Both the position numbers and the translations under genes were made by a program. The notes under the pieces are model-generated. The model had not been told where the DNA came from. It saw only the letters and a list, made by a program, of their open reading frames with translations, and did not search any database. A DNA stretch of 63,285 bases, counting the filler, from Pseudovirgaria hyperparasitica (Eukaryota): NCBI GenBank assembly GCA_010093815.1. It is 3 parts of 3 records of this genome, joined end to end, with 100 filler letters (N's around TTAATTAATTAA, not from the genome) between each part and the next. Parts side by side here need not be neighbours in the genome. Positions count along the whole stretch, not along the records: positions 44,602 to 63,285 come from ML996586.1; 2 more parts are not named here. The stretch is one strand, 5' to 3'. This document shows, piece by piece, positions 723-63,096 of the stretch (position 1 is the first letter of the stretch; every line of letters begins with the position of its first letter).

Positions 723-724
<2 letters not shown>

Positions 725-18519: not shown

Positions 18520-19544
18520 TATACTAAATATACCTTCGCCGCGCTACGTGTATAAATTAGTATCTACTATTAAGTACTACTATATATAGACTAGACTTAA
18601 CTATAGTATAAGAGTCTAATAGAGATAGATTTAAACTAAATTATATAAGAGATCGTAGATAACCTAGACGTCTCTCTAGACTAGTAGAACCCTTAGAAGC
18701 TTATATAGGCTATATAGTTATAGACCTAGAATAAATAGAAGGAAGTCCTCTAGATCTATTAGATATTCTAATAGAATAAGTATCTAGAATAGGTTTAGAG
18801 ACTATAGAAGGAACTAAGTAGATAGATATATAAGGGGCTTATAAAAGTCTAAGTATCTATCCTCCGCTAAGCCTAAATAGAAGCTATAGAACTTCTATAC
18901 TATCTATACTAGAGGGGTATCCTAGACACGTCTCTATAGTATAAAGTATATAGCTAGAGAGATATAATATAGTACTATCTTATAATATACCCGGACCTCT
19001 ATATATAGAGATAATCGCTTATCTATATAATAAGGACCTCTAATATTATACGGTAGCTTAATAAGTACTCTAAGAAGATCGCCCGGTAGATACTTATATA
19101 TCTCTCTCTCTTCTAATACTAATAGACCCGGATATATATACTAGATATAACTAGGTATATACTAGATAGATCCCGGTATACGCCGGAAGAACCCTAGAAG
19201 AACCCTAATAATTAGTTAAAGGATAACCCTTAACTAATAACCCCCGTACTCTATACGTGCTATCTAAGGGTAAAAATAATATTACTATAGGTTATAGGTC
19301 TATAGATATTTCTAATAGCTATATACTTAAGATAATATAAAGGCTTTATAAGATATAGTTATAGAGAGAAGGGAGTTTTTCCTTTTATAAAGGTTTCTTC
19401 TTATATAATAGCTTAGACTTAAGGAGGTATATATCTATAGAGTAAACTACTCTACCTAGTTATATAATATTATTATCATTATTATTATATATAATATATA
19501 AGTTATATAGAATAAGAGTCTAGCTCTACTCTATTCTATTCTAT

Positions 19545-22500
19545 TATAAGAATAGAGTTATTAGATAGTAGTATAGTTAGATAGAATAATAGAGTATATT
19601 CTATTATAGAACGAATTACTACTAAACCCTTTTAGTAGAAATCTAAGAGTATATATATAAAGGGATACTAATCTATCTAGCACGTGACTATTTACTACCC
19701 TTTATACTATCTTCTAACTATATTAGCTAAGGTATATATAGATTAGATTATATCTAAGACTAAGTTCTAATAATTATTCCCTTTCTTTAGAAAGCTACCC
19801 TTAGTAATCTAGATCGTTATCTATCTCTATATCCCTATTCTAAGTCTTATAAGACCTTAGTTATTCTCTATACTTCGTCTTAGATATTAGCCGATATTTA
19901 CTAATCTAAGATTTATATAAGTATTTTCCTAATAAACTAGATTTTATCTAACCTAAATTCTTATATAGATAAGATTATCTAATTAGGCCTAGCGTATCAC
20001 GTAATATAATTAGATAAGCCTAGGTACTATCTATATTAAAATCTTTTCTTAGAAATATTCCTTTCTTTAAAAAACTTCTTAACTCTTTATAGAGTTTTTT
20101 AGATTATTAGATATATTACCCGATTCTTATAGATATAGATTTATATAGATTTACTATAATTTAGTATAATTTATATAATTTACTAATTTTTATACTATAT
20201 TTAGCTAGTAATAGTAATAATCTATAATAATCTATATAAATTAGTAATAATTATAATATAGTTTCCTAAAATCTTAATACTCTAAAGTAATTAGTACGGA
20301 AATAGGCATCTTTAAATAATCCCTATCTTATATATATTACTAATATATTAAAAGCTATTAATCTACCCTAACCTAGACCGGGCTCTAATAATCTAGCTAT
20401 ATATTATTATAGTTATTACTTTCCGTTATATACCGCTTATAGTAGTACTAAATCTATAATATATAGTACTTATATAACTAAGAAGCATTATTACTTATAG
20501 ATATTTAAATAAGTTTAAAGAACTTTACGTAGATTTACTTATATTAGTATAGATTACTACTAGGCCTCTAGTAACCTCTACTAATAAGAAGTATAGTACT
20601 ACTAATTATAATACCTTAGAGAAGGCTTTCTATAAGCTATATATCTAAGGTAAGAGTTATATCTAGAAGTACGATTCTAATATAATCTATAAGGATTTAT
20701 TAGAATCTACTATAGCTATTATTACCGCGATTACTAGATAATATTATTTTTCTTAAATTATTATAGATTCTTACTAATATATATTAATCTCTATAATAGT
20801 ACTAAAATCTCTACTACTTTAGACTTCTTTCTATATACTAGTAATATTAAAATTTCTAGAAAAGATTCTAGTAAAAAGACTAAGGTTCCTTTCTTATATA
20901 TACTAAAGAGCTATAAATTTAGAGAAGATAGCTCTAATCTAGAAGTTTCTATACTAAAGGTATATAGTTCTATACTAATCGTTAAATCTTTTTACTAATT
21001 TATATAATTCTTAGCGTGTCTATACTAGTCCATCTCTCTCTATTCCGGGTTCTACTACTCCGTAGGTTTCTATAGAGGAGTTTATAGCTATAAGACGCGC
21101 TATATAGAATTTATAGTATTAGAATAAAAGGCTAGAGACTTATATTATAAAGCTCTATACTATACTAAATAAGAACTAGTAGAAGGAATTAGATATAATT
21201 ATTACGGTAATTAGTACTTCTACTCCTACTCTAACTTAATTAGTTTAGATCTATACTAATTAGTAATTTATTTCTTTTATCTAGCGTTTTTAGTTTTCGG
21301 TTTTAATTTTAAAGCGATCTTACTTTTTCTAGATAGATTAGTATAAGTTTATATAGATCTATATAGATCTTTATATTTTCTTTTAGCTTTCTTAATTTTA
21401 TCTTTCTTTAATAATAACTTCTTTAATCTCTTTAGTAATCTATACTAATCTATACTAATTAGCACCGATTTTCGATGTCTATTTCTCTTAGTAAATTATT
21501 TTTCTAAGTCTCTTTTTTAGTTAAATTTTTAAAGTTCTAAGTTTAAACTTTCTAAGGGAGTTTCTTAATTCCTTAGAATGTTTTAAAGATCTATATCTCT
21601 TCTATCTTCTTCCTTTTAGATAGCTATTCTTAGCGTCGAACTATACTAAAAAACGTTAAATTACCGTACTTTAGTATAATTCTCTACGATTCCGCGGCTT
21701 CCTTTACTAATTACTACTTATATACTAATATTACTACTTTACTAATATTTATTATAGGTTTCTAAGTATCTTTATTAGAATTATATTCTTTCTAATAAAT
21801 TTTATATAGCTATATACTATCTTTAGTATATTACTAGCTAAGTATCTACTTAACTTTATAGATATCTATACCTTCTTATATAACTACTTTATATAATATC
21901 TATTTAGAATAATCTAGTAATAATAAGATATAAAATAGCTTAAGAAGTATAATATAGAATATATTATATATCTTTAATATAGAAGGGAGTTATAATTTAT
22001 ATATCTAGTTATTAATTATACGAGTAATCTTATATAGATCTATTATTATATAGTTAAGCTTCTTCTTTAGTCTAATACTATAAATATTCTTACTATTTAG
22101 TAAAACTTTATCCCTAATATTAAAGATTATAGGTTTTCTACCCTTATTATAGTATGATTTACTATAATCTATAGTATCTTATAGTAACTTTATAATACTT
22201 CTTTATATTTAGAATAGTTCTATAGTAATTTCTATTACTTTAACGTTAGGTCGTTCTACTTTAAACTAAGTCTCTAAGAACTATATATTATAGTTCTAAC
22301 TAAAGTTTACTTTAAATAGACTTATATAGATTAATATATATTAGCTATTATTATATATAAATTCTATAATATAGACTAACTTTATCTAGTTATTCTACTT
22401 ATAGTTATAATATATATATAAATATACCTCGACTATCTAATTCTACCGCTCTATCTATCTATCTATTTATAGATAGAATATAGTACTAAGTTTCTACTTA

Positions 22501-29039: not shown

Positions 29040-32000
29040 CTATATAGAAAAGCTAGAGCTATAGAGCTACTCCTCTATCTTATTATTACTTTTAGAGTAT
29101 AGTAAATAAACTAGCTAAGTAATAGAGTAGTATAGATTAGATATCTTATCCTCTAGAGTAGCTACTTAATTAACTAGAGTCTAGTAAGAGAAGGACTACG
29201 CGCTAGAATAGAGTAACTAGATCTAAAGTTAGCTAATATAATCTAGAATAATCTAAAATAGAATATATACTCTCTTATAAGATAACTTAGAGGGAGAACT
29301 AGTAGATCTCTTATAAGATCTATTAGTAGTATAAGGTAGACGGAAAGAGATACCCTAAATCTCTTCTATAGCCTTAGTAGTTAAAACTAACTCCCTAGAG
29401 TAGGTAGTCTAGATACTAGGGATCTTATAATAACTAAAAAATATAAGCTAAGGCTAGAAGTAACTAATAGTTTCTAAACTTATACTTTAATAATCTCTAG
29501 AAAGAGCTTATAGCGCTCTCTAAATTCTTTATATATAGAGGGTAAGTAACTACTAAGACTACTAAGGGTCTTATAGACGCGAAGGCTATTATATATATTC
29601 TATATATAAATAGAAACCTAAAAACGTATTAGTATAGATAACTTTAGATTATCTAAGACTAAAATAGTCTAATAGACTTATCTAAAGATAAGCCTTACTA
29701 AAGATAGTATAATAATAATAATAATATTAGTAAACTAGGTAGAGTACCACTCTATAGGTGCATGCCTCCTCTAGTCTAAGCTACTATATAAGAAGAAACC
29801 TACGAATAGGAAAAACTCCCTTATATCCATAACTACGCTCTGTCTATCCTCTCGTTCTTTATATATATATAGCCCTAGGGGCTACCCATAGGCCTATAGC
29901 CTATGTTATAATGGTTTGCCCTTAGGTAGCACGTGTAGATGCGGAGATTATTAGTTAAGGGCTGCCCTTAACTAATAATCGCGGTTCTCCCGGGGTTCTT
30001 CCGACGTATACCGGGGTTCTTCCGGCATATATTAGGCTTCTTCTAGCATATATACGCGGGTCTACTAGAACTAGGGGAGAGGAAGGTATGCGAGCATCTA
30101 TCGGGCGACGTCCTTAGGGTACTTATTAAGCCATCGCGTAATGTCGGAGGTCCTCGTTATACGGACGAGGGCTTGTCTTAGGGTATAGAGGCTAGAGCAC
30201 GTCGCGAGGTAGTAGCGTATTATGCCTCTCCGGCCGTAGTCCTCGTACTAGGGAGATACATCTAGGACGCCTCTCTAGTAGAGGTAATGTAGGAGACCTA
30301 TGGCGCCTGTTCGGGCTTAGAGGAGTATAGATGCTTAGGCCTTCGTTAGCCCTTTATATATCTATTTACTCGGTTCCTTCTAAGGCCCTCGGATCTATTC
30401 TAGATATCTATCCTATTAGGAGGCCCACTAGGCTTTAAGTACCTTCCTCTATTTATTCTAGATTCACGACCGCATGACGCGGCTAAGCTCCTTAGAGCTC
30501 TATTAGCTCGGGACGGCATCTAGGTTATTTCGAACCTCCTACACGGTCTAGCTTAAGTCCGCCTCTATATGGTATTTATATTATACTCGAGTTTATCCTA
30601 TAGTAGGGAGGGCCTAGTAATGCGCGCGGATACGTATACATAGTACGGCGAAGGTATATACCCTATCTCCTCCACGTTCTTATACTTATTATTTAGTAAA
30701 GTATATAAGTCTCTATATCTAGTAGAAGTCCTATATACTCGTTACGTTTATCTCGCGTCGGAGGAGCGTCGTGTTAGTAGCTTTATATACGCCGGAGATA
30801 AGGCGGAGTATACGGTTTTATATAGACTTAAGCTTTGCCCGCCAAGCTTGTATAAGGGCCGTGTACTAGTACTCGTGTCCGTATATAAAGGCTAGGCGTG
30901 CTAGGGAGACGTATAGCTGTCTCGCCTTATCCCGGGCTATTCCCCACGTGGATACCGTAATCCGGTATATAGTAGTTTCTATCTAGAGGGCTCTGGAGAC
31001 GGCGTGTGCCACCTATAGTCTCTATTTTAGCTTATTATCGATTATGACGCCGAGTGCGCGTATGCTCTATGCTAGTAGTTCTATAAAGGCGTCGATTTAG
31101 GGGCGACGTGCCCCCTCCCTAGTAGCCTATCCTCTATAGCAGTTAATAAAGTATATAAGCTAGTATTTTTTAGGTGCGAATTTTGCTCCGTGGCGCTTTA
31201 CCTACTAGACGCATTTCTCGTGGTCTCGTTCGAGTCGTATGCATGTTCTACTAGTACTACTATCGACCGCGAGGAGGTATGTATCGTCCGCGTATCCGAC
31301 TACCTCTATGTATTCTATTCTCTAAAGGAGGTCTACTATAAAGAAGAGGAAGAGGATCGGGGAGATGGTACTCCCTTACGGGATGCCGTATACCGTCTCC
31401 TTATATTCGCTTCGGTATCCGGGGATATATATTTAAGTAGTCCTTTACGCGAGGAAGGACTATATAAATCATGTAATCTACTTAGGTATTCGCCTTATCC
31501 GGAGGTTGTGGATAAGTCTTATATGGTTTACCTTATTAAACGCCTCTACTATGTCTAGGGAGAGTAGCGTAACGACTCGTCCTTATTTCTATGTAGTCTA
31601 GATAACCTCGAGAATATGTTAAATAGCTGTGATTAGGGAGCTTCCTATCTTCGCCTTCTGGTTTGCTAGGAGAAGGCCGTGTACCTATACTACTATACTT
31701 ATCTTCTTAGTAATCGTGGCTTCTAGTACCTTACCAAGGTAGGAGAGGAGGGCGATTGGCCTCCATCCCTTCGGCGTGTTTAGGCTCTTCCCTAGTTTTA
31801 GGAGTATAACCGTGTATACGGTTCGGAAGCTCTATAGGTGGTATCCTATACGGGCGTACGCTCGGAATATATGGCCTATAATCGGTAAGGTCGCCTATAT
31901 AGTCCTCTTAAGGCATCGATTCGGAATTCTATCTAGCCCGGGCGCTTTATCGTTCGGGAGTGTCTTAATGGCGCCAAGTATATCGTCGTCCGTGATTTCC

Positions 32001-35000: not shown

Positions 35001-35683
35001 TTTTGTAGACTAAAGATAGTATAGTAATAGTAGTAAGTAGATAGCTTAAAGACTAGATATATAGGCCTATTACGGTTAGTAGAGTAGTAGCTAATACTAG
35101 AGTTAGAGTAGAAGAGATATTTAGAGCCGGCCGTATAGCTCTTAATATACTTAAAGTATATTAAACTATAGTTCGCTATTTTTCTATAGTATAAACTATA
35201 ACTACGTTTAGTATCTTTAGTAATCTAGACCTTATTATTAGAAGGGCTAGACTTAGAGTAAATAGTAAGGTTCTAGAAGAACCTAGAGTAACTAAATTAG
35301 TCTATATTAGACTAAAGAGAGAGACGGCGTTTAGAGTAGGGCGGCGAGAGTATAGGCTCTTAATTATTATCTATAATAAGATCTTCTTTATCCTCTAAAG
35401 AAGGTAAAGTAGATAGATAGTATAAGAAAGTATAAGTAGACTTTATAGCCGCTTCTTCTATAACGCTAGTACTAGAATTATCTAGATTAGAGCGACTAGT
35501 AGCTATATTAGTAGTAATAGTAGTAGTAGCCTTAGCTACCCTTCTCTATAACTTAGTATACTCCTTTATACTACTATAATAAGTAGTCTTCTTAGCCGGT
35601 ATAGATAGAGTAGAGGTAACCCCTTTAGAGTAAGTCTTATAAGAAGAGAAGATAGACTTAGAAATAGAACTAGTATTAGATAT
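29040..35683 (-). pseudogene. Gypsy-B antisense spliced accessory gene (Zn2Cys6-like motif, C-terminal coiled-coil), split by LINE-4
   Basis: Exons 35683-35009 + 29696-29682, 29617-29484, 29433-29271, 29216 to about 29040 (end uncertain). Introns of 64, 50 and 54 nt with (R)CTAAY-type branch sites and TAG acceptors, all phases consistent. Extra 5' UTR intron GTAAGT 35869-35684. Confidence 0.72.
29712..35008 (-). mobile_element. LINE-4: full-length Tad1-like LINE (more GC-rich, divergent subfamily)
   Basis: 15-bp TSD ACTAAAGATAGTATA at 29697-29711 and 35009-35023. ORF-track 31895-32077 gives KAPGLDRIPN (LINE RT N-terminus). GYADD at ~31225-31240 (minus). Confidence 0.93.
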
Positions 35684-37155: not shown

Positions 37156-37303
37156 ACGAACCGCGCGTCTTATTTATTATTATCTATTTTAGAACCGGTT
37201 CTTCTCCGGGCCAGGGGTTAGATAGTAGTAGTAGGGTAGCTTACGTACGACCCGCGTTTATTATTATTATTATCTATTTTAGAACCGGCTCTACCCCGGC
37301 CCA
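37156..37303. repeat. Two copies of a ~58-bp repeat (period ~90) in gypsy C
   Basis: ACGA.CCGCG...TTATTATCTATTTTAGAACCGG at ~37156 and ~37247. Confidence 0.8.
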
Positions 37304-37424
37304 CACGATTTTCCCCAATACGAGTATATAGGTTCTACGTCTAGCGACTTTCTTCTTCTTTAACTACTATTATACCTACTATCTCGATACCGCGTAGTAG
37401 CTACTACGATATTAGTAAACTCGT

Positions 37425-39000
37425 ATACCACCTCGTAGCTTCTATACTATTATTATAAGCGCGCTAGGCCTAAATAGGCCCATTATAGAAGCCGGCGCCG
37501 TCTTAGCGGTGGCTATAGATGCTAGGGGTTAAGACCCTAATAATCGACGCGCGCCTAGGCGCTAGGAACCGCCTAACCGCACCGTGAGTAGGTCCTATCC
37601 CTATACCGTTCCTTATACTAACTAGGTAGATTATTCCTCCTACCGTCTCCCGATAGGCTAAGCCTATTTACTATATAGAGCTATATATTATAGAGGGTAA
37701 CTCGTTAGAAAACGAGCGTACCAAGTCCGTATACTTCGTATATTATATATATATAAAGGCCCTAGAGAAGACTAGGGTACTTAAGTACGTGCCGTCTCTA
37801 CACTATGGTAGCGCCTACTAATCTAGAGCGTAGCTATAAGCCTAGCCGTAGTACTAACTATATAAAGTACTATACGTCGAAAGGGATCTACTTATAGGAT
37901 ACTAAGGAGCTCGCTATGTACCCGGCCCTACGTAAGGCGTAGAGCCGCCTTAAGAAGTTCGTGCACGAGTTAGTTAATAATAACTTTAGTTATATAATAG
38001 ACCGTGGTAGTCGCGGCCTAGACCCGACTAAGCCTTCATCCGGTAAGTAGCCGTGTATAAACTCTAAGTTCTACCGTCTATACGAGGACTATAAGTCTAA
38101 CTTAGAGATTATATATATCGTCCGCCGTAACGCTAGCATCGTTAGTTAGATCCCTATAACGCCTAATCGCGGTGCTATCACGGTAATTAAGACGCTATAT
38201 CGTGGTAGTAGTAACCGTAGGTAGCTTAGTAGTGTAATTCACTAGATGAATTAGTATATATCGTATAACGAGGCCTAAATAGGCGAGTTACGCACTAACA
38301 TCGGCGCCCTATAGATATATACTTAGTTAGCCTAATTACTACTATCTTAACACGTAACGTAGGGTTCGATATAGTAGGTCGCTTCCGGCCTAGCACGCCT
38401 AGCCGAGCCGCCGCCTTACTAACTCCTTATCTAGGCGGTTATAGAGGAGGAGGAGCCTCGTTTAAGTAGTAGTCGCCCGCGCCGTCCTTAGCTAAGCGGC
38501 CCTAAGGAGTCGCCCACCCGTAGCCCGCGCTATTACTATACTACCCCCCGCCGGCTCCCTATTACTCCCCCCCCGTAGGAGGCCTTACCGTTACCACGCC
38601 GTCTCTATACCCCGCCCCGCCGCTATAACCTATCCCGGCGCCGCTCTCGCTCGCCGGAGCGCCGTAGCCGGTCCCCCGACCGCCGCGACCGGTCCCCTTA
38701 CCGCTATAACTAGTCCCCCCGCTACTATAACCATTCCTATAAGCGTTACCGCCGATCCCGTAACCGCCGGCGTCATACTATTAAGGGTCGTCGCTTATTA
38801 TATTATTACCGGTCGCCGTCTCGTAGCCGCTATAGCCGCCCTAATAAGGTATATAACTCCCTCTCGCCGCTAAGCTAGATTAATAGTCGCCCCCGCTACT
38901 AGGAGCCGGCCTAGGGGAGAACTAGATAACTAACCTTATAGTTAGGATTTATAGTTAAGGACCGTGCCGGCCCCGGCGCCGTATAGACCTAGGGTAGAGC
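37425..39000 (+). pseudogene. Gypsy-C antisense spliced accessory gene (Zn2Cys6-like motif + Arg/Ser-Pro-rich tail)
   Basis: ATA(ATG)-PPR start. Exons 37425-37583, 37630-37784 and 37834 to about 39000. Introns GTGAGT..TACTAAC..TAG and GTACGT..TACTAAT..TAG, phases consistent. RRSRSPERRSRSPDRRDRSP at ~38636-38700. Confidence 0.8.
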
Positions 39001-44501: not shown

Positions 44502-44601
44502 NNNNNNNNNNNNNNNNNNNNNNNNNNNNNNNNNNNNNNNNNNNNTTAATTAATTAANNNNNNNNNNNNNNNNNNNNNNNNNNNNNNNNNNNNNNNNNNN
44601 N
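44502..44601. other. Artificial contig linker
   Basis: 100 nt of N with central TTAATTAATTAA. Confidence 0.97.
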
Positions 44602-46645
44602 TACGTTATTAGTTATATATATTATATATATATAGGGGGCCTATATCTATTTATAGGTATAGTATTATCCTAAGGTTATCGCGCTCGGTATACGACTATA
44701 ATAAGAGTAGTATTAACCTATAAATGTAGAAGAGGACTCGTCTTTCTAGTCCTAGAGGGTATATAGTATAGTATCCGGGGTGTATGGTTGGTTTACTCGT
44801 CTAGTAGTATTTATAGGGTTCCTAGATAGCGAGTATTATAGCCCCGGTCTCTTCGAGGAGCGTCGCCTAGTTCTCTCTTTTATATTATATATTTATCTAT
44901 ATAATTCGGAGTATATTCTAGTCCCTTATTAGGTACTAGAGAGTATATATACCTATATACTTATTTCTCGGAGGCGCGACTATCCTCGCGCGGTAGCGGC
45001 TTTAACTATACCTTTTAGTCATCCTATTATCTTTAGAATAGTCTACTATCCTACCTAACTACCTTCCGGAGAGAAGGTTAGAGGTGTTATAAAGGAAGGA
45101 CTCGTAGTAGGTGTTATATTCTATAACTATCTCGCGCCTCTCGCTTTTATCGTACGAATATATTCTATAATCTATTTACGTTTTATATACGTTAATAACT
45201 ATAACGGGTATTTCCCGTCATAGTTTAAACACTATACTATATCCCTATTTCTTACTCCGTCTCCTTGCGGTTTATAAGGGTACTCCTAGATAGCGTGGTC
45301 CCCACGGTACTATCTATACTTAGTCTTCTATAAGCACCTTTATATAGTATATCTATACCCTTAATAGTTAAAGTACTATATTATTACCTATACCCTATTC
45401 TATGGCTCGGCTATAAGGAGCTCTCCTTCTATTAGGAATCCCTTCTATATAATATATTATACGAGGGCGGGGTCTCGGAGCTCTATAATTATAGTAGAGT
45501 GTTTTTTCGCCGTCGTCTTAATCGTCTATAGATTCTTCTACCACGCTTTCGCGATCTTAATCCCTAGGTATTTTTACGTGTTAGATTATTCTATACACGT
45601 AATATCCTCCGCTCCGATAGCCTATCCCTATATAGGTACTATATATACTATAATCGGGTATATAGCTACTCTAATAGACGCGCTAGGGAAGATACTACCT
45701 ATTACGTTCGGATCTCGCAAGATGTTTTACTACGTAGTATTTATTATAGTAGTAAGTACTACCCTACCTAGTATAACTTTTATAGCCACGACGCTCGACT
45801 ATATTCCTTTCTATTCGTTAATCTTATTTATAATTTCCTTTAGGGATACCTATTAGACCTACGCTAGCGTGTCCTTATCCTAGATTACGACACGTATACT
45901 ATATACTCTATCTATAGTTCTAGTAGTCCTTAGTATAGTAGCTCCGGGTATTACTATAATCTAAGCCTACGTATTAGGGCGCTTACCTTAGGATAGCTCT
46001 TCCTAGATTCTCCGTAGGCTAGCTTCTATTTAGTTAAGCCTACTACTAGGTTCCTCTCGTAGCGACTTCCTTTCTTTCTCTATGATTCCTCTTAGATTCT
46101 AGATAAGGTCCCGGAATATATAAAGGAGGGTCTTCTTTCCCTCCTTGGCGTCCCTCTCTATACGTATTACCTAGTATTTAATTTTATCTAGGAGGGTCTC
46201 CCCTCTCGGGGTCCCCTCGGTCTAGGTTATCTATAGCGCTTTGCACCCTTAGTTAGTTCCTATATTTTAGATAGGTGTCTAGCTATCTATATTAATATCG
46301 CTATATAGCCGTTTCTACTATACTAGTAGGGGTATATCTAGCGTATACCGGGGTATTACGATACCTAAGGCCGCCATGGTTATTAGTTAAGGGTAGCCCT
46401 TAACTAATAAAAGGGGGTCGGCGTATCGGCGTTTATTAGATATAGTCTATACTTATATTATTAAAGAGTCTTTAAGCGTATATATATAGTGTCTCTATAC
46501 GTCGGTATCGTCGCGTATTATACGCTACACGTACGCACGTATATTAGAGGTTATTATACTCGGTATACTCTATCGTTTGATGTATGTAAATCGCTGTTTT
46601 ACCCCGAATTAACTAGTTTAGTCCGTTAGGGTGTAAGAAGTTTTT
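44602..46645 (-). mobile_element. LINE-5: 5' part (UTR, ORF1, APE start) of a Tad1-like LINE, cut by the contig start
   Basis: Near-identical to 16472-18516 apart from RIP transitions. Confidence 0.93.
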
Positions 46646-48599: not shown

Positions 48600-51500
48600 A
48601 AGTAATTCTTTAAAGATCTAGGTACTTATACTATAGTTTATATCTTACTACCGCTATATAACCCTATAGATCTTACTAGCTTTAATAATAAGCTTAAACT
48701 AGAGAGCGATCCAATTAATTTATAGTATATAGAAGTTACTACTCCCTATATATAATATAGTATATTAAGTAGGCCGGATACTTAGCTCTAGATCTCTATT
48801 CTCTACCGCGAGTTATTTAATAAGAAATTTAACTATCTAATATATATCGCTATAAGTATCTTATAAGACAAATAGGCGGATCTTCTATTATTCTAATTCT
48901 AAGACGTTACTATTAGATATATCTAGCTCTTAGATATTACTCGGGTGCTCTTAGCTATTATCTATTCTATTAATATAAAAGGATTCTATTATATAGAACT
49001 AGGTAGTCGTAGGTACCTTAAAGTAGATTTAAAGAATTATAATAATAACGTATACCGCTTTAAAGTCCTTTAATTTCGCCTAGGCGTCCTTCTATTTAAA
49101 TGCCTCGCTCTAAAAGTCTTTAATAAGGTTAGGTATTCTTCTAAAGTATCTAAGGTACTAATTATATTAATGGATACGGTTACTAATATAACTCGAGCTC
49201 GTTCTAAACATTTTATTTGGACTAGCGACACTAGTTTAAGTATAATTAGATTATCCCTTACTACGCTCATAGGGTTTACGGATATTCCGGCTTTAGTTAG
49301 TGTATAAATCTATAATAAGCTTACTAAGTAACGCATTAATACATGCTAGAAACTAATCTACTATACTATATAAGCTTCTAGAGACGGTAGCGCCGATAAC
49401 TACGCTACTTAGAATACATTTAATATAATAGTCCTTAATGTTATTATAGACTTAGTATCTATATCTCTAATATATAGGTCCCCTAACCCTAACGACGAGA
49501 TTCTAGATTATAGTATAGAGCCTTAGAATACCCTTATTACTCTTTCTAAATTATCTATATCTCTAGATAATAATAAGGATATAAATATAGAATATAGTTA
49601 CAATATTATTAGCAACAAAGGTTCTATTACTAGCCCTATCACTAATATATATATACTTCTAATATTATCTAAAGTCTACTCTAGTATTCTATCCCCTTTA
49701 CTACCCTCTATATAGAATCTAATACTTAGTAATAACTATCTAAATCTTTAACCTATCGACTATAACTACTATATTAAAGATTATAAAAGATTCTATAATC
49801 TCTAGAATATTATATATTTAGAACTATCTCTCTAATAATAGTATATCTATATATAGATGATAGATATACTTAGGGCTTAGTTTCTACTTTACGGCTATAG
49901 AGGAGCTAGGAAGAGCTATTTATAGCTTCGTCTACTACTAGCTATACTTCTAATTAATAAAATAAATAGTACTTCTATTATCGCTTATACTACTAAGGTA
50001 GTTATTCTATCTAGTAATATAATAGCGCACCTCCCTATACTAGGTTCTACCTAGATATATAGAATATATATATATATATTATTATCGGCCTAACTAACGA
50101 AACCTATAACGACGCTATAAGAAAAGTATATAAATATATAAGTAATATATTTACTTACTATAAGTCTCTAAAGATACTAGTTATTCTTTAAAGATACCTC
50201 GAAGCCGTTAATTAAGAGGTTTTCTTTACTATAGCTAGACTATCTTATTACGGTAACCCTCTTATCGGGCTAACCTAGAATAATATAATAGGCGGTACTA
50301 TCCTCGCGTAAGCTTAGGCTAACTATAGTAAATAACTATTAGAATATAGTACGGATCCCCGTGCTCGTCTATAGAAACTATATACTAGTTATATTATACT
50401 TAAGGTTATTAGACTTATTAAATCTTAATACTAATATAAATAGATCTCTAAGAATTTCGAGAAAGAAATGGCTTAGTTATTATATACTATCTATAAATAT
50501 TTTACTTATAATAAGGACATGCCTAAGGAGGAGTATAATAGAATAAACAAGCTATACCTCGCTACCTAGGACCTAGTTACTATCTACGCCTAGATTTATA
50601 TAGGGACCCTATATATTATAAATATCGCTAAGGTAGCCTATAATATATATCCGATTTTAGTTGTAATAGAAGAGACTATATATATCCTTAAAAGTAATAT
50701 ACTTAGGATTATTATTAATTATACTACTATAGAATAGTAACTAATATTTATTTATATCGGCAACCTATACTAGCTCGACACCTACTAGCGTAATAGTACT
50801 AATATATAGGCCGCGAACTAGAGGATCTCCTTTATAAAGTACTAGATATAATATAGTTTTCTAACTACTCGCCTTACCGAGTTAGAACGCTTAGTTTCTA
50901 AAATAATAAATATTATATTACTAATTACTTACTTAGGCGAGCTAACGACCTCACTCTATATAATAAATAATATTAATATACTACTCGTAGAGACCGTTTA
51001 ATAAATATTTAGAATCTACGGCCATTAATACGTCGTATATACTAATATTAATAGAGATTATACGTATATAGTAAATAACTTAATATATAATATAGACTTA
51101 TTATGTTTTACTTAGTAAATTATTACTAAGCTCTTCTATTATAGTATTATACTTAATCGCGTACTCTATATTTCTATATATACTACCTAACGTAATCTAT
51201 TTAAAGAGATAGTTAGGAACTCGCTTCTAACTATACTTACCATAGCGGATAAAGCTCGATTTAATACCCTATCTAAGCTAGTATAGAAGCTTGTCTAATA
51301 GCGTTTATAGAACGGTTCTTAGGGTTATAATAATAATATAGTTCTTATTAACCCGGTCTAAACTAATTACTTTAGCTTTCTCTCGGAAGTAAACTATAAC
51401 GTTATTACTATTACGCGCGCTAAATAGATAATAGTTATTATTACTAACTTTATATCTCTTAAGAGGTAGAAAGTCCTAGACGGCGTACTCGGTGAGATAT

Positions 51501-52075
51501 AGAATAAGTACTCTAAGATTCATATAATATATACATATATAACCCCTAACCTAGATAGTCTCTCTCTACTCTCTAATATATCTAATCTCTAATATAGTTA
51601 CCCTATACTTAGTATTAGAGAGAGAGAAGAATAAAGTAATTAATAAACTACCGATAGTACTAAGCTCTATAAGCTACTAGTCTACTATAAATATAACGTT
51701 AAAGAATATAAGTCTATTAAGTATCTAAGAGGGTCGACGCTTATATATAATAACTATTAGAATATCGGCTATAAAGCTAATATTTACTCTAAACCCAAGA
51801 CGCTTATAGGTATGTTTTATTATAATTATAAGACTATCGGTTATACTTAGCGTTATTATTCTAGCCGTACTAAATTACTAGTACGTATAAATGGTAATAA
51901 TCTAGTTAATACTACTAGAGCTAATACTACTAGAGCTAATACTACTAGAACTAATACTACTAGAGCTAATACTACTAATAAAGTAATTACTAGCGGCTAG
52001 AACGATAGAGACTACGAGGATACTAACCGAGATAGCGGTATTATAATATATAAAGACATAGAAGTTAATTAGTAA
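48600..52075 (+). pseudogene. RIP-inactivated Upf1/Dna2(Nam7)-like SF1 helicase with three C-terminal CCHC zinc knuckles
   Basis: Walker A GxGGAGKS (49893-49916), motif Ia GPTNET (~50085-50105), Walker B VVIEE (50660-50677), motif III IGDxxQL (50756-50776), motif VI NVxxITRAK (51398-51424). Three CxxCxxxGHxxxxC knuckles (51683-51863). 15-bp coding repeat 51907-51980. Start not resolved. Confidence 0.8.
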
Positions 52076-54130: not shown

Positions 54131-55274
54131 TAGCGGTTCTATAGCCTACTAACATATATACTATAAGAAAAATTAAATTTATAATTAGGTTTAACGATAA
54201 TATATTTCTTAAAATACTAGTATCTATATCTAACTAGTAGAAAGATTATAGTAACGCTTCGTGTATTAATTTAGTAGTATTTATATAGTAAATTAGGGTC
54301 TAATATATAATAAAGACTAGAAGGGCACTTAACTAGAGCCGTACTACTATATATTCTATTATACTACTAGTTAAGTATACGATAAGTAAAACGGAACTAG
54401 AGATAGATATTAGATAGCTTCTATAGTTAGTAATTAAACGTGTCCTAGAATATAGTAATAGTATAATACTCCTTAGCCTTAGATAGGATATAGATAGTAT
54501 ACCCAAAGTAAAATAAAATATAAACTAGCAACTAATATATAATAGTATAGACGGCTATATATAGATTATACTTAAATAAATCCGCCCCTCTATCCCTAAT
54601 ACTATACTTACTATAACTAGTATAATAGTAGTAATAGAAAGCTACTATCTATAACGGTAGAGATACCTATAGAGATAGTATTATAGGTAGTAGATAGTAT
54701 TACCTAAACAACTCGACCCTTCCTCTAGCGATACTATATATACTACTATTAGTACCTAGAAAGCCGCGAGACCAATCTATAAGCTCTAAAGATAGTAACT
54801 TTAAAAGCCTTAGAAGTACCTTAGTTATAGATAATATAGATCTTAATTATAAAGAGTAATAGAATAATAAAAAGGGTACTAGGGGTAGTAAGAGTAGCGC
54901 GCGTATTTAGCTAAGGTAATATGATACCGATATAAGATAGGTTCTATCTATAGTATATTAGTATATACCCGATTCTACTAGCTATATAACCGTAGCGCGT
55001 ATATTTAATTAAGACATTAATATACTAGTATAAGCCGGCGTCTATGTTAGGACTTAGCCTTAGGCAGGACCCGACCTACACGTACCTTAGCTAACAGGGT
55101 TAGGAGGTGACGTGAAGGGCGGTAAACAGTCACGTGCTAGATAGATCGGCGTCCCTTTGTATATATACTCTCGGATTCCTACCGAAAGGGTTCGGTAGTA
55201 ATTCGTTCTATAATAGAATACACCCCATTATTCCATCTAGCTATACTACTATCTAACTACCCTATTCTTACATT

Positions 55275-55283
55275 CGAATTACT
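55275..55283 (+). promoter_or_regulatory. Self-priming primer binding site of gypsy A
   Basis: CGAATTACT is complementary to AGTAATTCG (55197-55205) in the LTR, about 30 nt downstream of a TATA-like box (~55160). Confidence 0.65.
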
Positions 55284-58200
55284 CCCCATATAGTACTATA
55301 GTCAAGATGGTCTAACTAGAACCAAGAAGGTCGACACGATCCACTATAGGGACAAGTAACACTACATTAAACAATAGGGATCCTCTATAATTAGTATTAA
55401 ATCCGGCCGTTCTTAATAGAGAAGTGGAGATGTCCGACCGAATCACGGAACTTTCTAATAAGGAAATGGTAGATATACTAAGCGACTTCCTACGATAGGA
55501 AGCTAGACAACGAGTCGTGGTAGAGCTATACAAGGAATCGCAACCATCAATCGCCGAACTATAGGAGTATATCGCTAATCAAGCCCGAGAGATATAGATC
55601 CTTAAAGAATAGACTAAACGTGCGAAACTCCTCGCAAAACAACGAGAACTTGACGAGTCTCTTAAAAGACTATACGGAACGATAGTAGGTGGACGACTTC
55701 CTACACCAATTCAGGCGGAATTAGTTCACCTACCATTAGAGTTACGATAATCCACTGTACACCCAGCCGCTTCGTTGCCGATTTACCCTACTCCCTCCTT
55801 AGGTATACCGAAACCTAAAGATCCGACCATATTTATAGGGAAGAACCAAAAGGAGTAGAAAGATTGGAAGAGAGACTGCGAGAAGTACTTCCTCGATAAC
55901 CCTATACTCTTTTCTACCAAAGTATAACGCATTTCATTCGGAGAACGTTACTTAGGTTTACAATCCCGCGATCAATAGGATAGATAGAAAGAAGCCAAGC
56001 CACTATCGGCGATAACCTGGGAGCATTTAGCTATATTTATACTAAATACCCTCGGAACTAACGGAGAACGCGAAAGAAAGGCACTATCTAAGTTAAGAAG
56101 CGTGGCATAACGACCGAGCTAGACACCTACTTAACTACTACAATACCTATAAAACCTCTAGGATAATATCCCTACACTATAGGAAAATATTCGCATATTC
56201 TAGTTTCGCGAAGCACTACTCCCGTTAATCCACGAAAGATTAGAAATAGCATTATTAAGTTTTAACCATCTACACGAATTAGAGGAGAAAGCTAATAAAC
56301 ACTACCGTATCCTTAAGGAACGCGGCTCTCTAGGTAAAACCGACGAACCCTACACGGGTTAGAAACGAGGTCGATCGAATACGTTCGATTAAGAGTAACC
56401 TTACCGCGATTAATACTAGAAGAGCGTAAATTAGGGTAGAAACGCGTTAAGAGGACACCGAAACAATCGAGGCGGTGGTTCCTAACACGGAAAAGGATAA
56501 GGTATAGGCTTAAATGTAACGCCTATCGTAAAACAGTAGGATTATAGCGCACTTTATTACTATAAGTATGGAGAAAAGAGATATATTTCACCTAACTATA
56601 AGAATCCGAAAAAAGAATAGGCTAGTACGCGAGACCTAACCGCGTTCTTAGCTAAATTATATATACTTAGGAGGAGCCGCAGCGCCTTCCGGCGAGTAAA
56701 GACCTAATATTACTAAAAGTATTATTACCCATAGTAAATAGTAATAAAACTATATAGGCCCTCGTGGATACTAGTATAGAAGATAACTATATTTCGTCGA
56801 TTCTCGCTAAGGAGTATAGATTATCGTACGATCTCGGTAAAGTTAGCCGAACCATCGTAGTTAATGGACATGAAGTTAGAACTTTAGGTAAAACTATAAC
56901 GAATTACGAAGTTCATGACTTAAAGATAATAAAATAGTAGATGTCTAATGAATTTATCGTGGCTAATATTAGCTAATAGAATATGATTCTAGGGATACCT
57001 TAGCTTAAACGCCTAAACCCAATCCTTGATTTTTAGAAGGAGACATTGATGTTCCGTCGACATCGCGGTAAATTATACTAGTAAGTCGCAACCATTAGTA
57101 AGGAGGCATGGAACCTCGCTATGCGGACCCGATCATCGCTAATCTACCTTATATCCCTATCGATCGTCGATAAAGACGAAGAGAATAGTAATAATCGGGG
57201 TAAAGACACGCTACCCGACGTATATTCGTAGTATACGGATATGTTTTCGGTAGGAGACGCGTTACTCCTCCCTAACTATAGGCCGTATAAGCTAAAGATC
57301 GAGCTCGAAGAGGGAGTAGACGTCCCTTATAGTCTACTTTACCTACTTTTAAGACTAGAACTTAAAGTTCTTTATAAATATATTAAAGAATATCTCGGAA
57401 GAGGCTAGATACGTCGTAGTACGTTATTAGCCGGCGTATCTATTCTCTTCGTGAAGAAGAAAGACGGAAGTTTACGTCTATGCGTTAACTATTAAGCACT
57501 AAATGCGGTGACTAAGAAGAATCGTCACCTATTACCGTTAGTTAGTGAATCTTTAGACTAATTAACGAAGGCAAAGTACTTTACGAAGCTAGATTTACGA
57601 GATATATATTACCGGCTTCGAATCCGTCGTGGAGATAAGTGGAAAACCGCATTTCGGACTAGATATGGTCATTTTAAGTATACTATTGTGCCGTTTAGGC
57701 TAATAAATGCGCTAGGAGCGTTCTAAGGATATATTAATACTATACTTATAGGATTACTTAATGTGATCTACGTAGTTTACCTCGATGACATACTAATTTA
57801 CTCTAATAGCATGTAGAATCACGAAGAACACGTGAAATCGGTGCTAAATCGTTTAAGATAGTATAAACTCTACGCAAAGTTATCTAAATGTAAGTTTCAC
57901 TAATAAGAAGTTGGGTTTCTCGGCTTTATTATGACACACGGCGGCCTTAAAATGGAGCCAGAGCGTGTTAAGACCATTATGGAATGGCTAGAACCTACTA
58001 CTATACGTTAAATCAGGACGTTCATAGGTTTCGTGAACTATTATCGTAAATTCATTATAGGTTTCTTACGAATTGCGGCGCCGCTTAATAAACTCATAGA
58101 GAATGGCGGTAAAATCCCTATAGGTGGGCGAGCATAGCGCAAAGCTAAGTCGGTCGAGATATAGTTAACGCCGGAAGCGCGAGATACGTTCCGATCGTTA

Positions 58201-60725
58201 AAGAATTGCTTTATAACTACGCCGATTCTTAGGTATTTCGATCCCGAGAAGCATATTTAGGTCGAAATAGACGCATCTAGATTCGTAATTACTAGAATCA
58301 TTAGTTAACCGTATAAAGATGCGAAAGACAAGGTATAATGGCACCCGGTCGCCTTCTTTTCCCGTAAAATGGCGGATATAGAGACGCGTTATAACACGCA
58401 CGACTAGGAACTACTCGTAATTATCGAGAGTTTTAAGTAATGGCGATATTATTTAGAAGGCTCCGTATATTAGATTGAATTATTATCGGATTACGTAAAT
58501 CTACGTTACTTTATATCGACTAAGGTCCTTAATCGCTAATAAGTACGTTAGGCTAAGTAGATGTTAATATTTAACTTTAAAATCTTATATAAAGCTAGAA
58601 GAGAGAATAAAGTAGATCCTCTATCACGGCGTGAAGATTACGAGAAATCGTCGTAGAATAACGTAGATAGTCGGTGTAATTTAGACTATGCTATACTATA
58701 GATACTAAAAGACTAGTTATCTAATAGAGTGCCGGAAGCCAGGATACTTTCGGCGACTCTCCGCGGGAATTAGAGCGGGTATTAAGTAATCTAAACTAAC
58801 GTCTAAGAAACAGAGCAAATCCTCGAAGACTTAATTAAATCTACCTAGAATTCTAATACATTAGTAAAGAAAGTCATAAGCATGAAGGGAATGGCTATAG
58901 AACCGCCGTGGTTATTAAGGTAGGAACGACGATCGGACGCGATCTACTTCTAAGGCCGACTCTACGTGCCGGAGGGCGGCTTACGAATCGATGTTTTAAG
59001 GGAATAGCACGATTACGTATTAGTAGGATACTTCGGCGTTATAAGGACGGTCGATTTAATCCGAAGAACGTACGACTAGCTAGGTCTTTATAAGTATATA
59101 AAGGACTACGTAAAAACGTGTAATGTTTACCAGCATACGAAAGTGTATAGACACTTACCATATAGCGAATTAAGGCTATTGCCTGTGCTAAATAAGGCAT
59201 GGAAAGAATTGTTAATGGATTTTATCATAGATCTACCCCTAAGTAAGTGTCTTAGGCATGTTTATAATAGTTTACTCGTAGTTCTAGATAGATTTATAAA
59301 GATATTATACTACATCCCTATAAGGAAGATAATCCAAGCACCGGATCTTATAGATATACTACTTCGTGACGTAGTTCGGCTCCACGGTATACCGAACGGT
59401 ATAGTTTCGGATAGAGGTCCGTAGATAACGTCCAAGTTTTAGAAGGATTTCTACTATACGCTGGGAATTAAGCGGAAACTTAGCACCGCGTTCCACCTAT
59501 AAACAGATAGGTAGATAGAGCGGTAGAATTAGATAGTTAAGGCGTATTTACGCGTATATTACAACTATAAGTAAGATAACTAGGTAAGGTTAGTCTATGT
59601 CGCGGAATTCGCGTATAATAATAGCCGACATGCGTTAACCCACGTAAGTCCGTTCGAAGTAAACTTCGGTCGAAACCATAAAGTGTAGTTTATAGGAACT
59701 TAGTACAAATTAGAGTAGCCTAACGTTAAGGCGACGGAGATTACGATAGAACTATTCTAAACGTAAAGAAGCGTTATAAAGTTATTATAAGATACTATAG
59801 ATTATAGTAAATCGCACTATAATAAGGGTAGAAAGCCCATGATCTTTAATGTTAGAGATAAAGTTTTACTAAATAGTAAGAATATTCGTAGTATCAGGCC
59901 GAAGAAGAAGCTTAACTATACGATAATAGGTCCATTTAAGGTTACTCGTGTAATTAATGACCAGGCGTATAAGTTAAAACTCCCTCCCACGTTAAAGATA
60001 TACAATATATTCCATATCACGCTTCTCGAGCCATTCCATGCCTTATCGTTACCGGATCGTTCCGAACAGACGTTATATAAAGTAGTTACGTAAGGAGGTG
60101 CGGATATCTATAAAGTTAAGTAGATACTAGGCTAATAACGTGCCGAAGATGGTACGTGGCTATATAAAATTCATTAGAAAGGGTATAATCCTAACGAAGA
60201 TACTTGGGAACCCGTAATATACATTAGTAAAGCAGCGATATTAGCGTATAAGTAGCGATTAGTAAAGGAAGCCGCGGAATCGTAGAGAATTATACTAAAG
60301 TACGGCGATTCGACGTTTTTTAGTATAGTTCGGCGCCGAGGACGGCCGCCTAAAAGGAAGAAGGTGAAAGAGACATAGATCTTTAAAACATTCCAAGGAA
60401 TTAAGGAACTTCCTTAGAAAGTTCGAACTCAGAACTTCAAAAAAAATTAACTAAAAAAGAGACTTAGAAAAATGATTCACTAAGAGAAATAGACATCGAA
60501 AATCGGTATAGATCGGTATAGATTACTAAAGAGATTAAAGAAGTTATTATTAAAGAAAGATGAAATTAAGAAAGCTAAAAGAAAATATAAAGATCTATAT
60601 AGACCTATGTAAACTCGTACTAATCTATCTAGAAGAAGTAAGATCGCTTTAAAATTAAAACCGAAAAAACCAAAACGCCAGATAAAAGAGACATATTAGC
60701 ACCGATTGGTGTAGATCTAAACCGA

Positions 60726-61707
60726 TCAAGTCGGAGTAGGAGTAGAAGTACTAATTACCGCGATGGTTACATCCAATTCCTTCTGCTGGTTCTTATTTAG
60801 CATAGTATAGAGCTTTATGACATAAGTCTCTAGCCTTTCATTCCAACGCTATAAATTCTATATAGCGCGCCTTATAGCTATGAACTCCTCTATAGAAACC
60901 TACGGAGCGGCGGAACCCGGGACGGAGAGGGACGGACCGGCGCGGGCATGCTAAGAATTATATAAATCAGCGAAAAGATTCAACGATCGGTATAGAACTA
61001 TATACCGTTAGTGTAGAAACTTCTAGATTAGAGCCATCTTCCCTAAATTTACGGCTCTTTAGCACGCGCGAGGAAGGAACCTTAGCCTTTTTACTAGAAC
61101 CTTTTCTAGGAATTTTAATATCGCTGGTATATAGAAAGAAGTCCGAAGTAGTAGAGATTTTAGCACTATTATAGAGATTAATATATATTAGTAAGAATCT
61201 ATAACGATTTAAGAAAAACGATATTACCTAGTAATCGCGGTAATAATAGCTATAGTAGATTCCGATAAACCCTTGCGGATCTTATTAGAATCATACTCCT
61301 AGGCGTAACCCTTGCCTTAGGTATATAGCTCGTAGAAAGCCTTCTCTAAGGCGTTGCGATCGGTAGTACCACGCTCCTTATCGGTAGGGGTTACTAGAGG
61401 CCTAGTAGTAATCTATACCGATATAAGTAAATCTACGTAAAGTTCTTCGAACTTACTTAAATACCTATAAGTAATAATGCTTCTTAGTTATGTAAGTACC
61501 GTATATTATAGATTTAGTACTACCGTGAGCAATGTACGACGGAAAGCGATAACCATAATAATATATGGCTAGATTATTAGAGCCCGGCCTAGGTCGGGGT
61601 AGATCGATGGCTTTCGACATGTCGGTGACGTATACGAGATAGGGATTATTCGAAGGCGCCTGTTTCCGCGCTAATTGCTTTAGAGCGTCGAGATTTCGGG
61701 AAACTAT
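60726..61707 (-). pseudogene. Gypsy-A antisense four-exon accessory gene (~270 aa; Zn2Cys6-like motif, C-terminal coiled-coil)
   Basis: Exons 61707-61465, 61412-61228, 61165-61006 and 60950-60726. GT-AG introns of 52, 62 and 55 nt in phases 0/2/0. Internal stops are only RIP-type TAA/TAG; terminal TGA. Confidence 0.82.
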
Positions 61708-63096
61708 ATTATAATTATTATTAATTTATGCGGATTATTGCGAATTATGTTGTTACTGGCTAAGGACGGCATGAAAATTAGTAAATTGCGCTAAATCGCA
61801 CTAAATAGTAGTAAATCTATATAAATCTATGTCTATAAGGATCGGGTAATATACCTAATAATCTAAAAAACTCTGTAAAGAGTTAAGAAGTTTTTTAAAG
61901 AAAGGAATATTTCTAAGAAAAGATTTTAATATAGGTAGTACCCGGGCTTACCTAATCACATCATGTGATACGCTAGGCCTAATTAGGCAATCTCACCTAT
62001 GTAAGAAGTTAAGATAGATAAAATCTAGTTTATTAGGAAAACGCTTATGTAAATCTTAGATTAGTGAATATCGGTAAGTATCTAAGACGAAGCGTAGAGA
62101 ACGACTAAGGTCTTACGAGACTTAGGATAGAGATATAGAGATAGGTAATAATCTAGGTCGCTGAGGGTAGCTTCCTAGAGGGGAGGGATAATTATTAGGA
62201 CTTAGCCTTAGGTAGGACCCGACCTACATATACCTTAGCTAATAGGGTTAGGAGGTGACGTGAAGGGCGGTAAACAGTCACGTGCTAGATAGATCGGCGT
62301 CCCTTTATATATATACTCTCGGATTCCTACCGAAAGGGTTCGGTAGTAATTCGTTCTGTGATAGAATACACCCCATTGTTCCATCTAGCTACACTACTAT
62401 CTAACTACCCTATTCTTATAGTCTACCTATTTCATATTAGTATACACCCGGTTCTACTAGCTATATTATTACTATGATTATATTCGTATAAGATCTATAC
62501 TAATAATCGAATATTTACTTATATACTTTACTTCCTCCGTACTTTATGAAATTATATTATAATTAGTAGACGCGGTAACTTAATCTCTACCGCCTAAATA
62601 TAGTTTTTAACTCTTATCGCCACTAACTCCGTCTTATTACCTATGACCTAAGTTATATATAGAAATATATAAGTATAGCGAGAGTTACGACCGTTCTAGC
62701 TTAACTACTAGCTATAGAATAGCTAACTATAATATACACGTATGACGTACGGAGGCCTTAAGTATTAGCGCCTTTCTACTATATATCTAGTATCTCTAAG
62801 ACCTATACTAACTATCTAAAATAAGTTATAGTATATATAGAGATACTATTATTAAGATAGTATACGGAAAAGTATTATAAGAGCTTAAAAATAGTAGTAT
62901 AGATACTACTATACTTATTAGAATAGTTAAGAAAACTATGACTAAAGAATTTAATTAGTATATCGCGGCTATAGATAGTAAGTTAGTATTAATAGTTATA
63001 GCTATAGATATAATAGAGGCTAAACTAGATATATATATACTAGCTATAGATACCTAGTTATAGTCGCTATTAGAATATAAAGAGAAAGAGAATATA

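Follow-up and report, generated by a model that had tools for sequence, protein, structure and literature searches.

Organization of the locus

The DNA analysed here is a stretch of 63,285 nt (the window) from the fungus Pseudovirgaria hyperparasitica (GenBank assembly GCA_010093815.1), which was assembled from contigs joined end to end. It contains a chromovirus-like Ty3/Gypsy retrotransposon in two copies, a complete one (copy B) and a truncated one (copy A), and each of them carries a block of DNA in which an accessory gene with four exons had been predicted (Table 1). The block is antisense to gag-pol and is located within the ~1.8 kb separating the end of pol (~60327) from the 3' long terminal repeat (LTR; 62193), a position that was left out of the first-pass annotation and that is the most informative fact about it. 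Position, orientation and occurrence in both copies are observed directly for the block, as is its passage, together with the element, through one or more real integrations, the last being evident from the TG..CA LTRs of copy B and the 5-bp target-site duplication GTCTA (55040-55044 / 62421-62425) that borders it.

Table 1. Features of the antisense block and of its carrier element, with exons and introns as modelled in copy B; positions count along the window
Feature	Position	Strand	Length (nt)	Remarks
Gene block, copy B	60726..61707	-	982	
Exon 1	61465..61707	-	243	Starts with ATA in both copies; in-frame TAG at end
Intron 1 as modelled	61413..61464	-	52	Poor donor GTATTT; no branch-like site
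Alternative intron 1	61456-61402	-		Donor GTAAGT; frame kept
Exon 2	61228..61412	-	185	Contains DRNALEKAFYEL; 2 internal stops (TAA, TAG)
Intron 2	61166..61227	-	62	GC 0.19; poor donor GTAATA; good TACTAAT 22 nt before acceptor
Exon 3	61006..61165	-	160	Basic stretch KGSSKKAKVPSSRVLKSRKFR; stop-free in copy B
Intron 3	60951..61005	-	55	GTATAT donor, CTGAT branch-like site, TAG acceptor
Exon 4	60726..60950	-	225	TGA stop at 60728-60726; 3 internal TAG
Candidate intron of the 5' untranslated region (UTR)	61760..61854	-	95	GTATAT...TACTAAT...TTAG
AT-rich spacer, pol end to antisense-gene stop	60328..60725			T-rich on minus strand; contains four of six indels separating A from B
Ty3/Gypsy (chromovirus-like) element, copy B, complete	55045..62420	+		LTR pair, domains, duplication
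5' LTR, copy B	55045..55272	+	228	TG...CA; LTR-pair search and end reading
gag zinc-knuckle position	56558..56599	+		Reads Y-x2-Y-x4-Y-x4-Y, all TAT/TAC
pol	55888..60327	+		Protease, reverse transcriptase, RNase H, integrase, SH3_Tf2-1, weak chromodomain (Pfam)
Polypurine tract just inside 3' LTR	62177..62188	+		AGAGGGGAGGGA
3' LTR, copy B	62193..62420	+	228	Ends read TA..TA
Gene block, copy A	20258..21239	+	982	More heavily mutated; 13 internal stops
3' LTR, copy A	19541..19770	-		LTR pair I17

Copy B represents a complete insertion, as indicated by its LTRs (95% alike; pair family D20), the target-site duplication and the polypurine tract. A Pfam scan of 55047-62423, translated with stops as X, revealed the order protease, reverse transcriptase (RT), RNase H and integrase that is expected of Ty3/Gypsy elements: gag-asp_proteas (residues 566-655, weak), RVT_1 (802-961, E 7.9e-26), RT_RNaseH (1041-1169, one of two RNase H models matched), Integrase_H2C2 (1312-1365), rve (1408-1480) and SH3_Tf2-1 (1604-1664). 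These are followed by a Chromo match at residues 1688-1729 (E 0.0027), whose 18.0 bits are below the curated cut-off of 25.1 in a sequence damaged by repeat-induced point mutation (RIP), and no Pfam call was obtained for gag in the copy B translation. In total, 62 in-frame stops were present among the 1170 codons of pol that were counted (0.053 per codon). Past the weak chromodomain match, the pol reading frame continues at 60330-60420 (+) into an Arg/Lys-rich tail with an RGRP core (RRRGRPPKRKK), which may resemble an AT-hook. The gag site listed in Table 1 has the C-x2-C-x4-H-x4-C spacing of the retroviral zinc knuckle.

Copy A is the mirror image of copy B, with pol on the minus strand at 23366-21642 (local tblastn with the pol of the element) and the block on the plus strand, and it is truncated at 23366 by the end of its contig. 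The linker behind it (23367-23466) consists of N runs around TTAATTAATTAA, and is followed by ~17 CCCTAA telomere-type repeats (to 23560). Since the window is a concatenation of contigs, the apparent layout of the two copies, 39 kb apart and inverted, is artificial. In both copies the block is situated within the LTR-bounded element, which bears out the earlier statement that the gene travels with the element, and these two blocks are the only ones in the window.

Divergence of the two copies

The whole window is AT-rich and rich in TA dinucleotides, with the mark of RIP. The second block was found where it had been annotated, and the two blocks can be aligned over 982 nt with 155 mismatches (84.2% identity) and no indel. 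From copy B to copy A, 149 of the 155 mismatches are C>T or G>A, four are in the opposite direction and two are transversions. Copy B is the better preserved one, its segments having a GC content of 0.19-0.47 versus 0.11-0.32 in copy A.

Of the 149 changes towards T or A, 92 are in a CpG context, with both bases of the CpG often hit (CG to TA), and only 34 are in a CpA/TpG context; copy B itself is depleted of CpA/TpG and has kept its CpGs. The two copies thus seem to have experienced different mutation preferences or an extra process.

Sequences related to the element were also found in public data, for which contigs of four sequencing runs were compared with the stretch around the block; no RNA run was listed as containing it. 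A total of 8890 short contig pieces from one DNA run were aligned to 59800-62423, with all 30 bins covered, suggesting that the family is highly repeated in the organism of that run; one of its contigs skips 60568-61081. Compared with copy B, the variants of this run comprised 54 C>T, 58 G>A, 10 A>G and 12 T>C, together with four transversion places, and no stop codon was touched among the variants listed (40 of 165). The contigs of a second organism matched only outside the gene body and carry no weight either way. A 2840-nt contig from another run (X4; very high depth, 2603) possesses 130 nt of the LTR (62197-62326) near its end and then unrelated sequence; it might represent a solo LTR or, alternatively, a transcript that includes an LTR, from elsewhere in that organism. 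In metagenomes, neither an exact 33-mer nor a transition-tolerant pattern hit any locus.

Structure of the predicted gene

Spliceosomal introns of filamentous fungi are of the GT..AG type and about 45-100 nt long, and the three introns modelled in copy B (52, 62 and 55 nt) are GT..AG introns within this length range. The first-pass annotation had described the gene as fully reconstructed, with four exons and ~270 aa. The exons do join in frame, but the first codon is ATA and not ATG in both copies, internal in-frame stops amount to six in copy B (five TAG and one TAA) and 13 in copy A, with six common to both at model codons 81, 113, 119, 213, 227 and 230, and the exon set is not unique, since a stop-minimising search gives another three-intron path with fewer stops (five versus six). 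Because both copies have lost the start codon and share six stops, the gene cannot be reconstructed in full from them. The other five frames contain 14-38 stops in copy B and 24-53 in copy A, and the seven stops present in copy A only are all located on CAA, CAG, CGA or TGG of copy B.

The peptides quoted previously, VSRNLDALKQLARKQAPS, DRNALEKAFYEL, KGSSKKAKVPSSRVLKSRK and EEFIAIRRAI*NL*RWNERLE (asterisks, stops), were all recovered from the translation, the last from exon 4, which has a Pro/Ala/Gly/Ser-rich start and then a helix-like part (EEF..RWNERLE..LNKNQQKELD). A Cys motif, which had also been reported, was not recovered: neither copy has a single Cys codon in the model translation, and the stretch in question is the Tyr-rich AIYYYGYRFPSY...IIYGTYITKKHYY. 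The 3' third of exon 1 is AT-rich and Tyr-rich, with two Y-x2-Y pairs 16 residues apart. Given that the gag knuckle of the same element now reads Y-x2-Y-x4-Y-x4-Y, the Tyr run may hide Cys, and a Cys motif beneath the Tyr codons may reasonably be supposed, though it is not observed.

The splice sites were evaluated with a lenient filter (donor GT[AG]N[GA]T; CT[AG]A[CT] 8-35 nt before YAG; length 45-110 nt), which was passed by intron 3 and the 5'-UTR candidate only. The latter had been placed at about 61855-61760, one base off the well-formed candidate at 61854-61760. A branch-like CTRAY is present in intron 2 (CTAAT), intron 3 (CTGAT) and the 5'-UTR candidate, while none was detected in intron 1; introns 1 and 2 of copy A begin with AT instead of GT. 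With an alternative intron 1 available and poor donors in the model, the exon borders, above all that between exons 1 and 2, are tentative.

Probable coding signals other than stop counts

RIP yields transitions only, and the purine/pyrimidine string is therefore unaffected by it. In the model, purines account for 0.60, 0.46 and 0.40 of codon positions 1, 2 and 3 (163, 125 and 108 of 271; z = 4.7 for position 1 versus 3). The purine excess of position 1 over position 3 (R1-R3) is 0.11 (weak), 0.34, 0.25 and 0.15 in exons 1 to 4, the model frame being the best of the three in all four exons, and the flanks are flat (R1-R3 at most 0.08 in every frame). Control windows of the same kind were taken from both strands of the whole 63 kb (3248 windows); for periodicity and GC, stop-minimising models of 3016 of them served as controls, those overlapping either gene copy being excluded. 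The periodicity of the block, 0.203, was reached by 100 of the 3016 control models (3.3%). Control models of high periodicity are clustered mainly at 37260-38300 (+), 48650-49470 (+), 49300-51900 and 34700-35100 (both strands), and also at 0.7-1.4 kb, and these clusters could be old coding regions in their own right. In the model, pyrimidines make up 60% of third positions (T 0.38, C 0.22), versus 47% in pol, which suggests a codon usage that differs from the one in the genes of the element itself. Training a triplet model of purines and pyrimidines on pol gave too weak a signal for use, with 0.03 bit per codon on pol itself.

The base composition follows the proposed exons. In copy B, the GC content is 0.39-0.47 in exons and 0.19-0.29 in introns, and a sliding GC profile displays four blocks of higher GC, and it falls at each of the three predicted introns; the first of these falls extends over the last ~60 nt of exon 1, which makes that border doubtful. 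The exon-minus-intron GC contrast of 0.179 was matched by two of the 3016 controls, and contrast and periodicity together by none of them (0/3016).

Six indel events distinguish copies A and B over 58603-62420 (60439-40, 60505, 60664, 60698-700, 61747 and 61791; an end artefact at 62420 is omitted). None of them is located in pol, the LTR or the 982-nt block, and all six are in the 880 nt of flanking spacer, for which (880/1862)^6 = 0.011. The indel at 61791 lies in the candidate 5'-UTR intron, and the only indels reported in the contigs of the DNA run, 61788 and 61791, are both within this intron as well.

Periodicity, the GC contrast between exons and introns, and the avoidance of indels, none of which depends on stop counts, support former coding in the proposed frames. 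From these statistics, we infer that the four GC-richer blocks were once coding in these frames, and that the three AT-rich gaps were once introns.

A probable antisense accessory gene

Taken together, we interpret the block as an antisense accessory gene of the chromovirus-like Ty3/Gypsy element, located between pol and the 3' LTR (the aORF-3R arrangement) and killed by RIP, and we put the probability of this interpretation at roughly 0.6, with tentative exon borders and a hypothetical function. With respect to the aORF-3R definition, the block has the position between pol and the 3' LTR and the opposite strand; its frame is not open in either copy (ATA start, 6 or 13 stops), a damage that is compatible with RIP. 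Introns persist in a gene borne by a retroelement only if the gene is antisense to the genomic RNA, since antisense introns are not spliced from the genomic RNA that is reverse-transcribed, and an intron-bearing gene in antisense orientation fits this principle.

In its intact state, such a gene might have been transcribed from its own promoter, which we would speculatively place in the ~490 nt from the 3' LTR to the start codon. The transcript, with four exons and possibly one leader intron, would then be spliced and translated to a basic protein of ~270 aa, with a possible two-knuckle zinc site (C-x2-C-like, now Y-x2-Y), a basic stretch resembling a nuclear localization signal (KKAKVPSSRVLKSRKFR) and a C-terminal helix. 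As a matter of speculation, this product could have been a small protein that binds nucleic acid in the nucleus and regulates the element, acting on its nucleic acid or on its transcription, and, equally speculatively, the antisense RNA might pair with genomic RNA and thereby damp the element. Because both copies in the window are dead, the practical value of the finding is limited.

Objections and alternative explanations

A number of observations weigh against a former gene, beginning with the premise that an intact ancestor existed, which has to be assumed because neither copy is open at the start codon or at the six shared stops. The exon lengths (243, 185, 160 and 225 nt), which had been said to fit the intron phases exactly, do join in frame via GT..AG introns, but the fit by itself is not beyond chance. 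When stops over 982 nt were minimised by dynamic programming, with at most three free GT..AG introns of 45-75 nt allowed, five stops were obtained at the locus, through an intron set other than the annotated one, and five or fewer stops were reached in 282 of the 3248 control windows and in 156 of the 1364 windows of matched GC (0.34-0.44). By comparison, the true frame of pol has 10-24 stops, or 6-13 when free introns are allowed. Stops occur at 6 per 270 codons (0.022 per codon) versus 0.053 in pol, in a model whose frames and introns had been picked to avoid stops. Fitting phases and stop count are evidence no better than roughly p = 0.1. In addition, every internal stop is TAA or TAG and can always be explained by RIP, so that a search for stops of other origin has little power.

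Further objections concern the splice sites and the statistics themselves. Introns 1 and 2 fail the donor consensus GTRNGT (with G>A by RIP at +5 allowed), only one of the three coding introns passes the lenient filter, and candidates that pass it are common anyway (17 donors per 7.4 kb, ~2.3 per kb, minus strand). The longest stop-free run reaches 163 codons on the presumed antisense strands of long interspersed nuclear elements (LINEs), versus at most 86 in the block. Periodicity is strand-symmetric, and only the stops and the GT..AG polarity assign the gene to the minus strand. Moreover, R1-R3 is just 0.06-0.07 in pol and the LINE genes, and a high value is therefore no general mark of coding in these elements. 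The spacers are of low complexity and may be more prone to indels, which makes the indel argument supportive, not decisive.

The predicted protein also found no match in protein libraries, Pfam or the PDB. In a word-indexed search of 5.8 billion clusters, for which read-through translations with X at stops were used, two read-through frames including all four exons returned 704 and 943 candidates, none at E <= 0.01, and exon 1 alone returned nine candidates in a word-based search, none at E <= 0.1. An exhaustive phmmer search with the frame containing exons 2 and 4 against 1,835,955,588 representative proteins gave 0 matches at E <= 0.001, three read-through frames hit 0 Pfam families, and the PDB gave 0 matches at E <= 1. 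RIP damage is an insufficient excuse for this outcome, as the pol of the same copy still produces its RVT_1 match. The block is an orphan, as reported in the literature for antisense genes between pol and the 3' LTR. In the ESM Atlas, the nearest clusters to exon 1 were bacterial DUF5677 at 0.92, which were treated as chance; its recognition value for exon 1 was 2331, a score that says nothing on whether the gene is real.

Many of these points speak for an explanation without any protein, which we regard as having an appreciable though minor chance of being correct: the block would be part of a non-coding spacer between pol and the 3' LTR, cis-acting or junk and maybe a template of antisense RNA, and the protein an artefact of threading GT..AG introns. 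Free-intron models equal the stop count in ~9-11% of control windows and another intron set wins at the locus, long open frames are common on non-coding strands of the window, the protein, Pfam and PDB searches gave no homologue, and introns 1 and 2 have poor donors, the former also lacking a branch-like site. Non-coding antisense transcripts of retrotransposons, such as that of micropia, are also documented in excerpts of PMC7264820. However, a spacer leaves unexplained why each of the four blocks shows purine periodicity in its predicted frame while the flanks are flat, why so few controls match the GC contrast, and why indels are absent from the block with six in the neighbouring 880 nt.

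The pyrimidine-rich third positions (60% versus 47% in pol) and the retained introns might alternatively point to a piece of a host gene, transduced with its exons and introns in reverse orientation and carried as a passenger without a role for the element. Host-gene capture by LTR elements is documented, and the same source (PMC7264820) describes transduced genes as usually present in one or a few copies, whereas here 8890 contig pieces were aligned to a 2.6-kb stretch. Relatives of a host gene would also be expected in a library of 1.8 billion representative proteins, in which the search with exons 2 and 4 found none; furthermore, the block has its own start position and stop codon. We therefore consider transduction to be unlikely.

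A third ORF (open reading frame) on the sense strand, env-like or an extension of pol, with the minus-strand frames open as its mirror image only, is highly improbable: the strand symmetry of the periodicity, a stop-free run of 92 codons on the plus strand (60896-61171) and the extension of the pol frame into the Lys/Arg-rich tail are in its favour, but the best plus-strand frame has 19-32 stops per 327 codons versus 13-19 on the minus strand (60300-62400), the frames opposite to the model have 14-38 stops versus six, and only on the minus strand are the gaps between the blocks bounded by GT and AG.

Whichever explanation is preferred, the analysis of the block has a lesson for RIP-mutated DNA: stop counts and fitting phases are weak evidence, while measures that are proof against transitions, such as purine/pyrimidine periodicity and the distribution of indels, are still informative.

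Other elements in the window

A family that looks like Tad-type LINEs, judging from RT-like stretches in its translations, is present in minus sense at about 3800-8800, 13500-18500, 30000-34600 and 44600-46600, and in plus sense at 9400-13200. Its apparent non-coding strand has stop-free runs of 159-163 codons (31079-31555, 17235-17723 and 45368-45853), a warning that, in RIP-mutated DNA such as this, a long open frame is commonly met on the wrong strand. Further remnants of Gypsy-type pol were detected at 25354-28422 (+) and 42183-39832 (-), with 35-46% and 34% protein identity to the pol of the element, respectively, the second being located within a GC-richer stretch at 37-44 kb; no counterpart of the antisense block was found beside either of them.

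At about 700-3500 (+), the translation contains the Copia-like RT motif YIDDILVF, and purine periodicity is strong there too. A 125-codon open frame with a GC content of 0.61 occupies 38496-38870, and clusters of high periodicity, including 37260-38300 and 48650-51900, may represent further old genes. No ORF of at least 150 aa initiated by ATG, GTG or TTG was present in any frame of the whole 63 kb. Rfam gave no match for the stretch, tandem repeats were limited to short, low-scoring arrays (10 rows, 1.9-3.7 copies, scores 30-44), and among inverted repeats none pointed to a nested transposon.

Comparison with known antisense genes of LTR elements

Antisense ORFs between pol and the 3' LTR have been described for Boty, Grande, RIRE2, Retand and PvRetro13, that is, for a handful of plant elements and one known fungal family (Boty); according to excerpts of PMC7264820, their products are without clear similarity to other proteins, some of them are nuclear, and their function is unknown.

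The brtn gene of Boty shares with the block a fungal host, a Gypsy element with a chromodomain (a weak match here), a position on the opposite strand between pol and the 3' LTR, carriage by the element and a product without a known domain. Unlike the block, whose copies here are RIP-dead, brtn is reported from intact elements. No sequence likeness between the two was shown, the searches having given no protein and a direct comparison with BRTN not being part of them. The gene is said to have been described by Zhao et al. in 2011 (Virology 417:248). Mentions of brtn or BRTN are found in excerpts of papers on BcGypsy1, Boty-like elements and Monilinia transcripts (PMC8365987, PMC4227169, PMC5987419). 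Going beyond the antisense accessory gene itself, we tentatively suggest, as a proposal well short of even odds, that this fungal chromovirus family independently gained an antisense gene with introns, whose sequence is not related to brtn and whose codon usage is like that of the host, and that its product was a small nuclear protein with a zinc-knuckle pair, a basic stretch and a helix, by which the element was regulated.

In plants, the aORF-3R genes (gene23 of Grande, those of RIRE2 and PvRetro13, and that of Retand with a TRP28 domain) have the same position and orientation as the block and are mostly without homologues in databases (excerpts of PMC7264820 and PMC11963269). In the same excerpts they are present in most copies of a family, and the block was seen in two of the two copies in the window; the Grande gene has its own upstream promoter (PMC7264820), and nuclear or DNA-binding roles have been proposed. 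They differ from the block in belonging to another kingdom and to non-chromovirus lineages. In Retand, antisense ORFs occur in all clusters, mostly with a TRP28 domain (PMC11963269), and the regions between pol and LTR are 2.9-6.6 kb, much longer than the ~1.8 kb here. No Pfam family was hit by the three read-through frames, and the block is thus without a TRP28 (PF04195) match. Another difference is that the block model needs three or four introns, whereas the main texts of PMC7264820 and PMC11963269 never use the word "intron".

The antisense genes of complex retroviruses are comparable in layout. In human T-cell leukaemia virus (HTLV), which has an antisense promoter in the 3' LTR, the minus strand close to this LTR codes for a regulatory protein whose transcription does not depend on that of the genomic RNA (excerpts of PMC7264820). 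This is an analogy of layout only, without homology, between a virus gene and a block in a fungal host. If the family did gain its antisense gene independently, antisense accessory regulators would have arisen repeatedly, in LTR retrotransposons of fungi and plants and in retroviruses, and kept introns would be a built-in mark of a gene that has always been antisense to the genomic RNA. Next to Boty, a second and unrelated fungal example, with introns, would suggest that this layout is a recurrent solution and could provide a second fungal system for functional tests.

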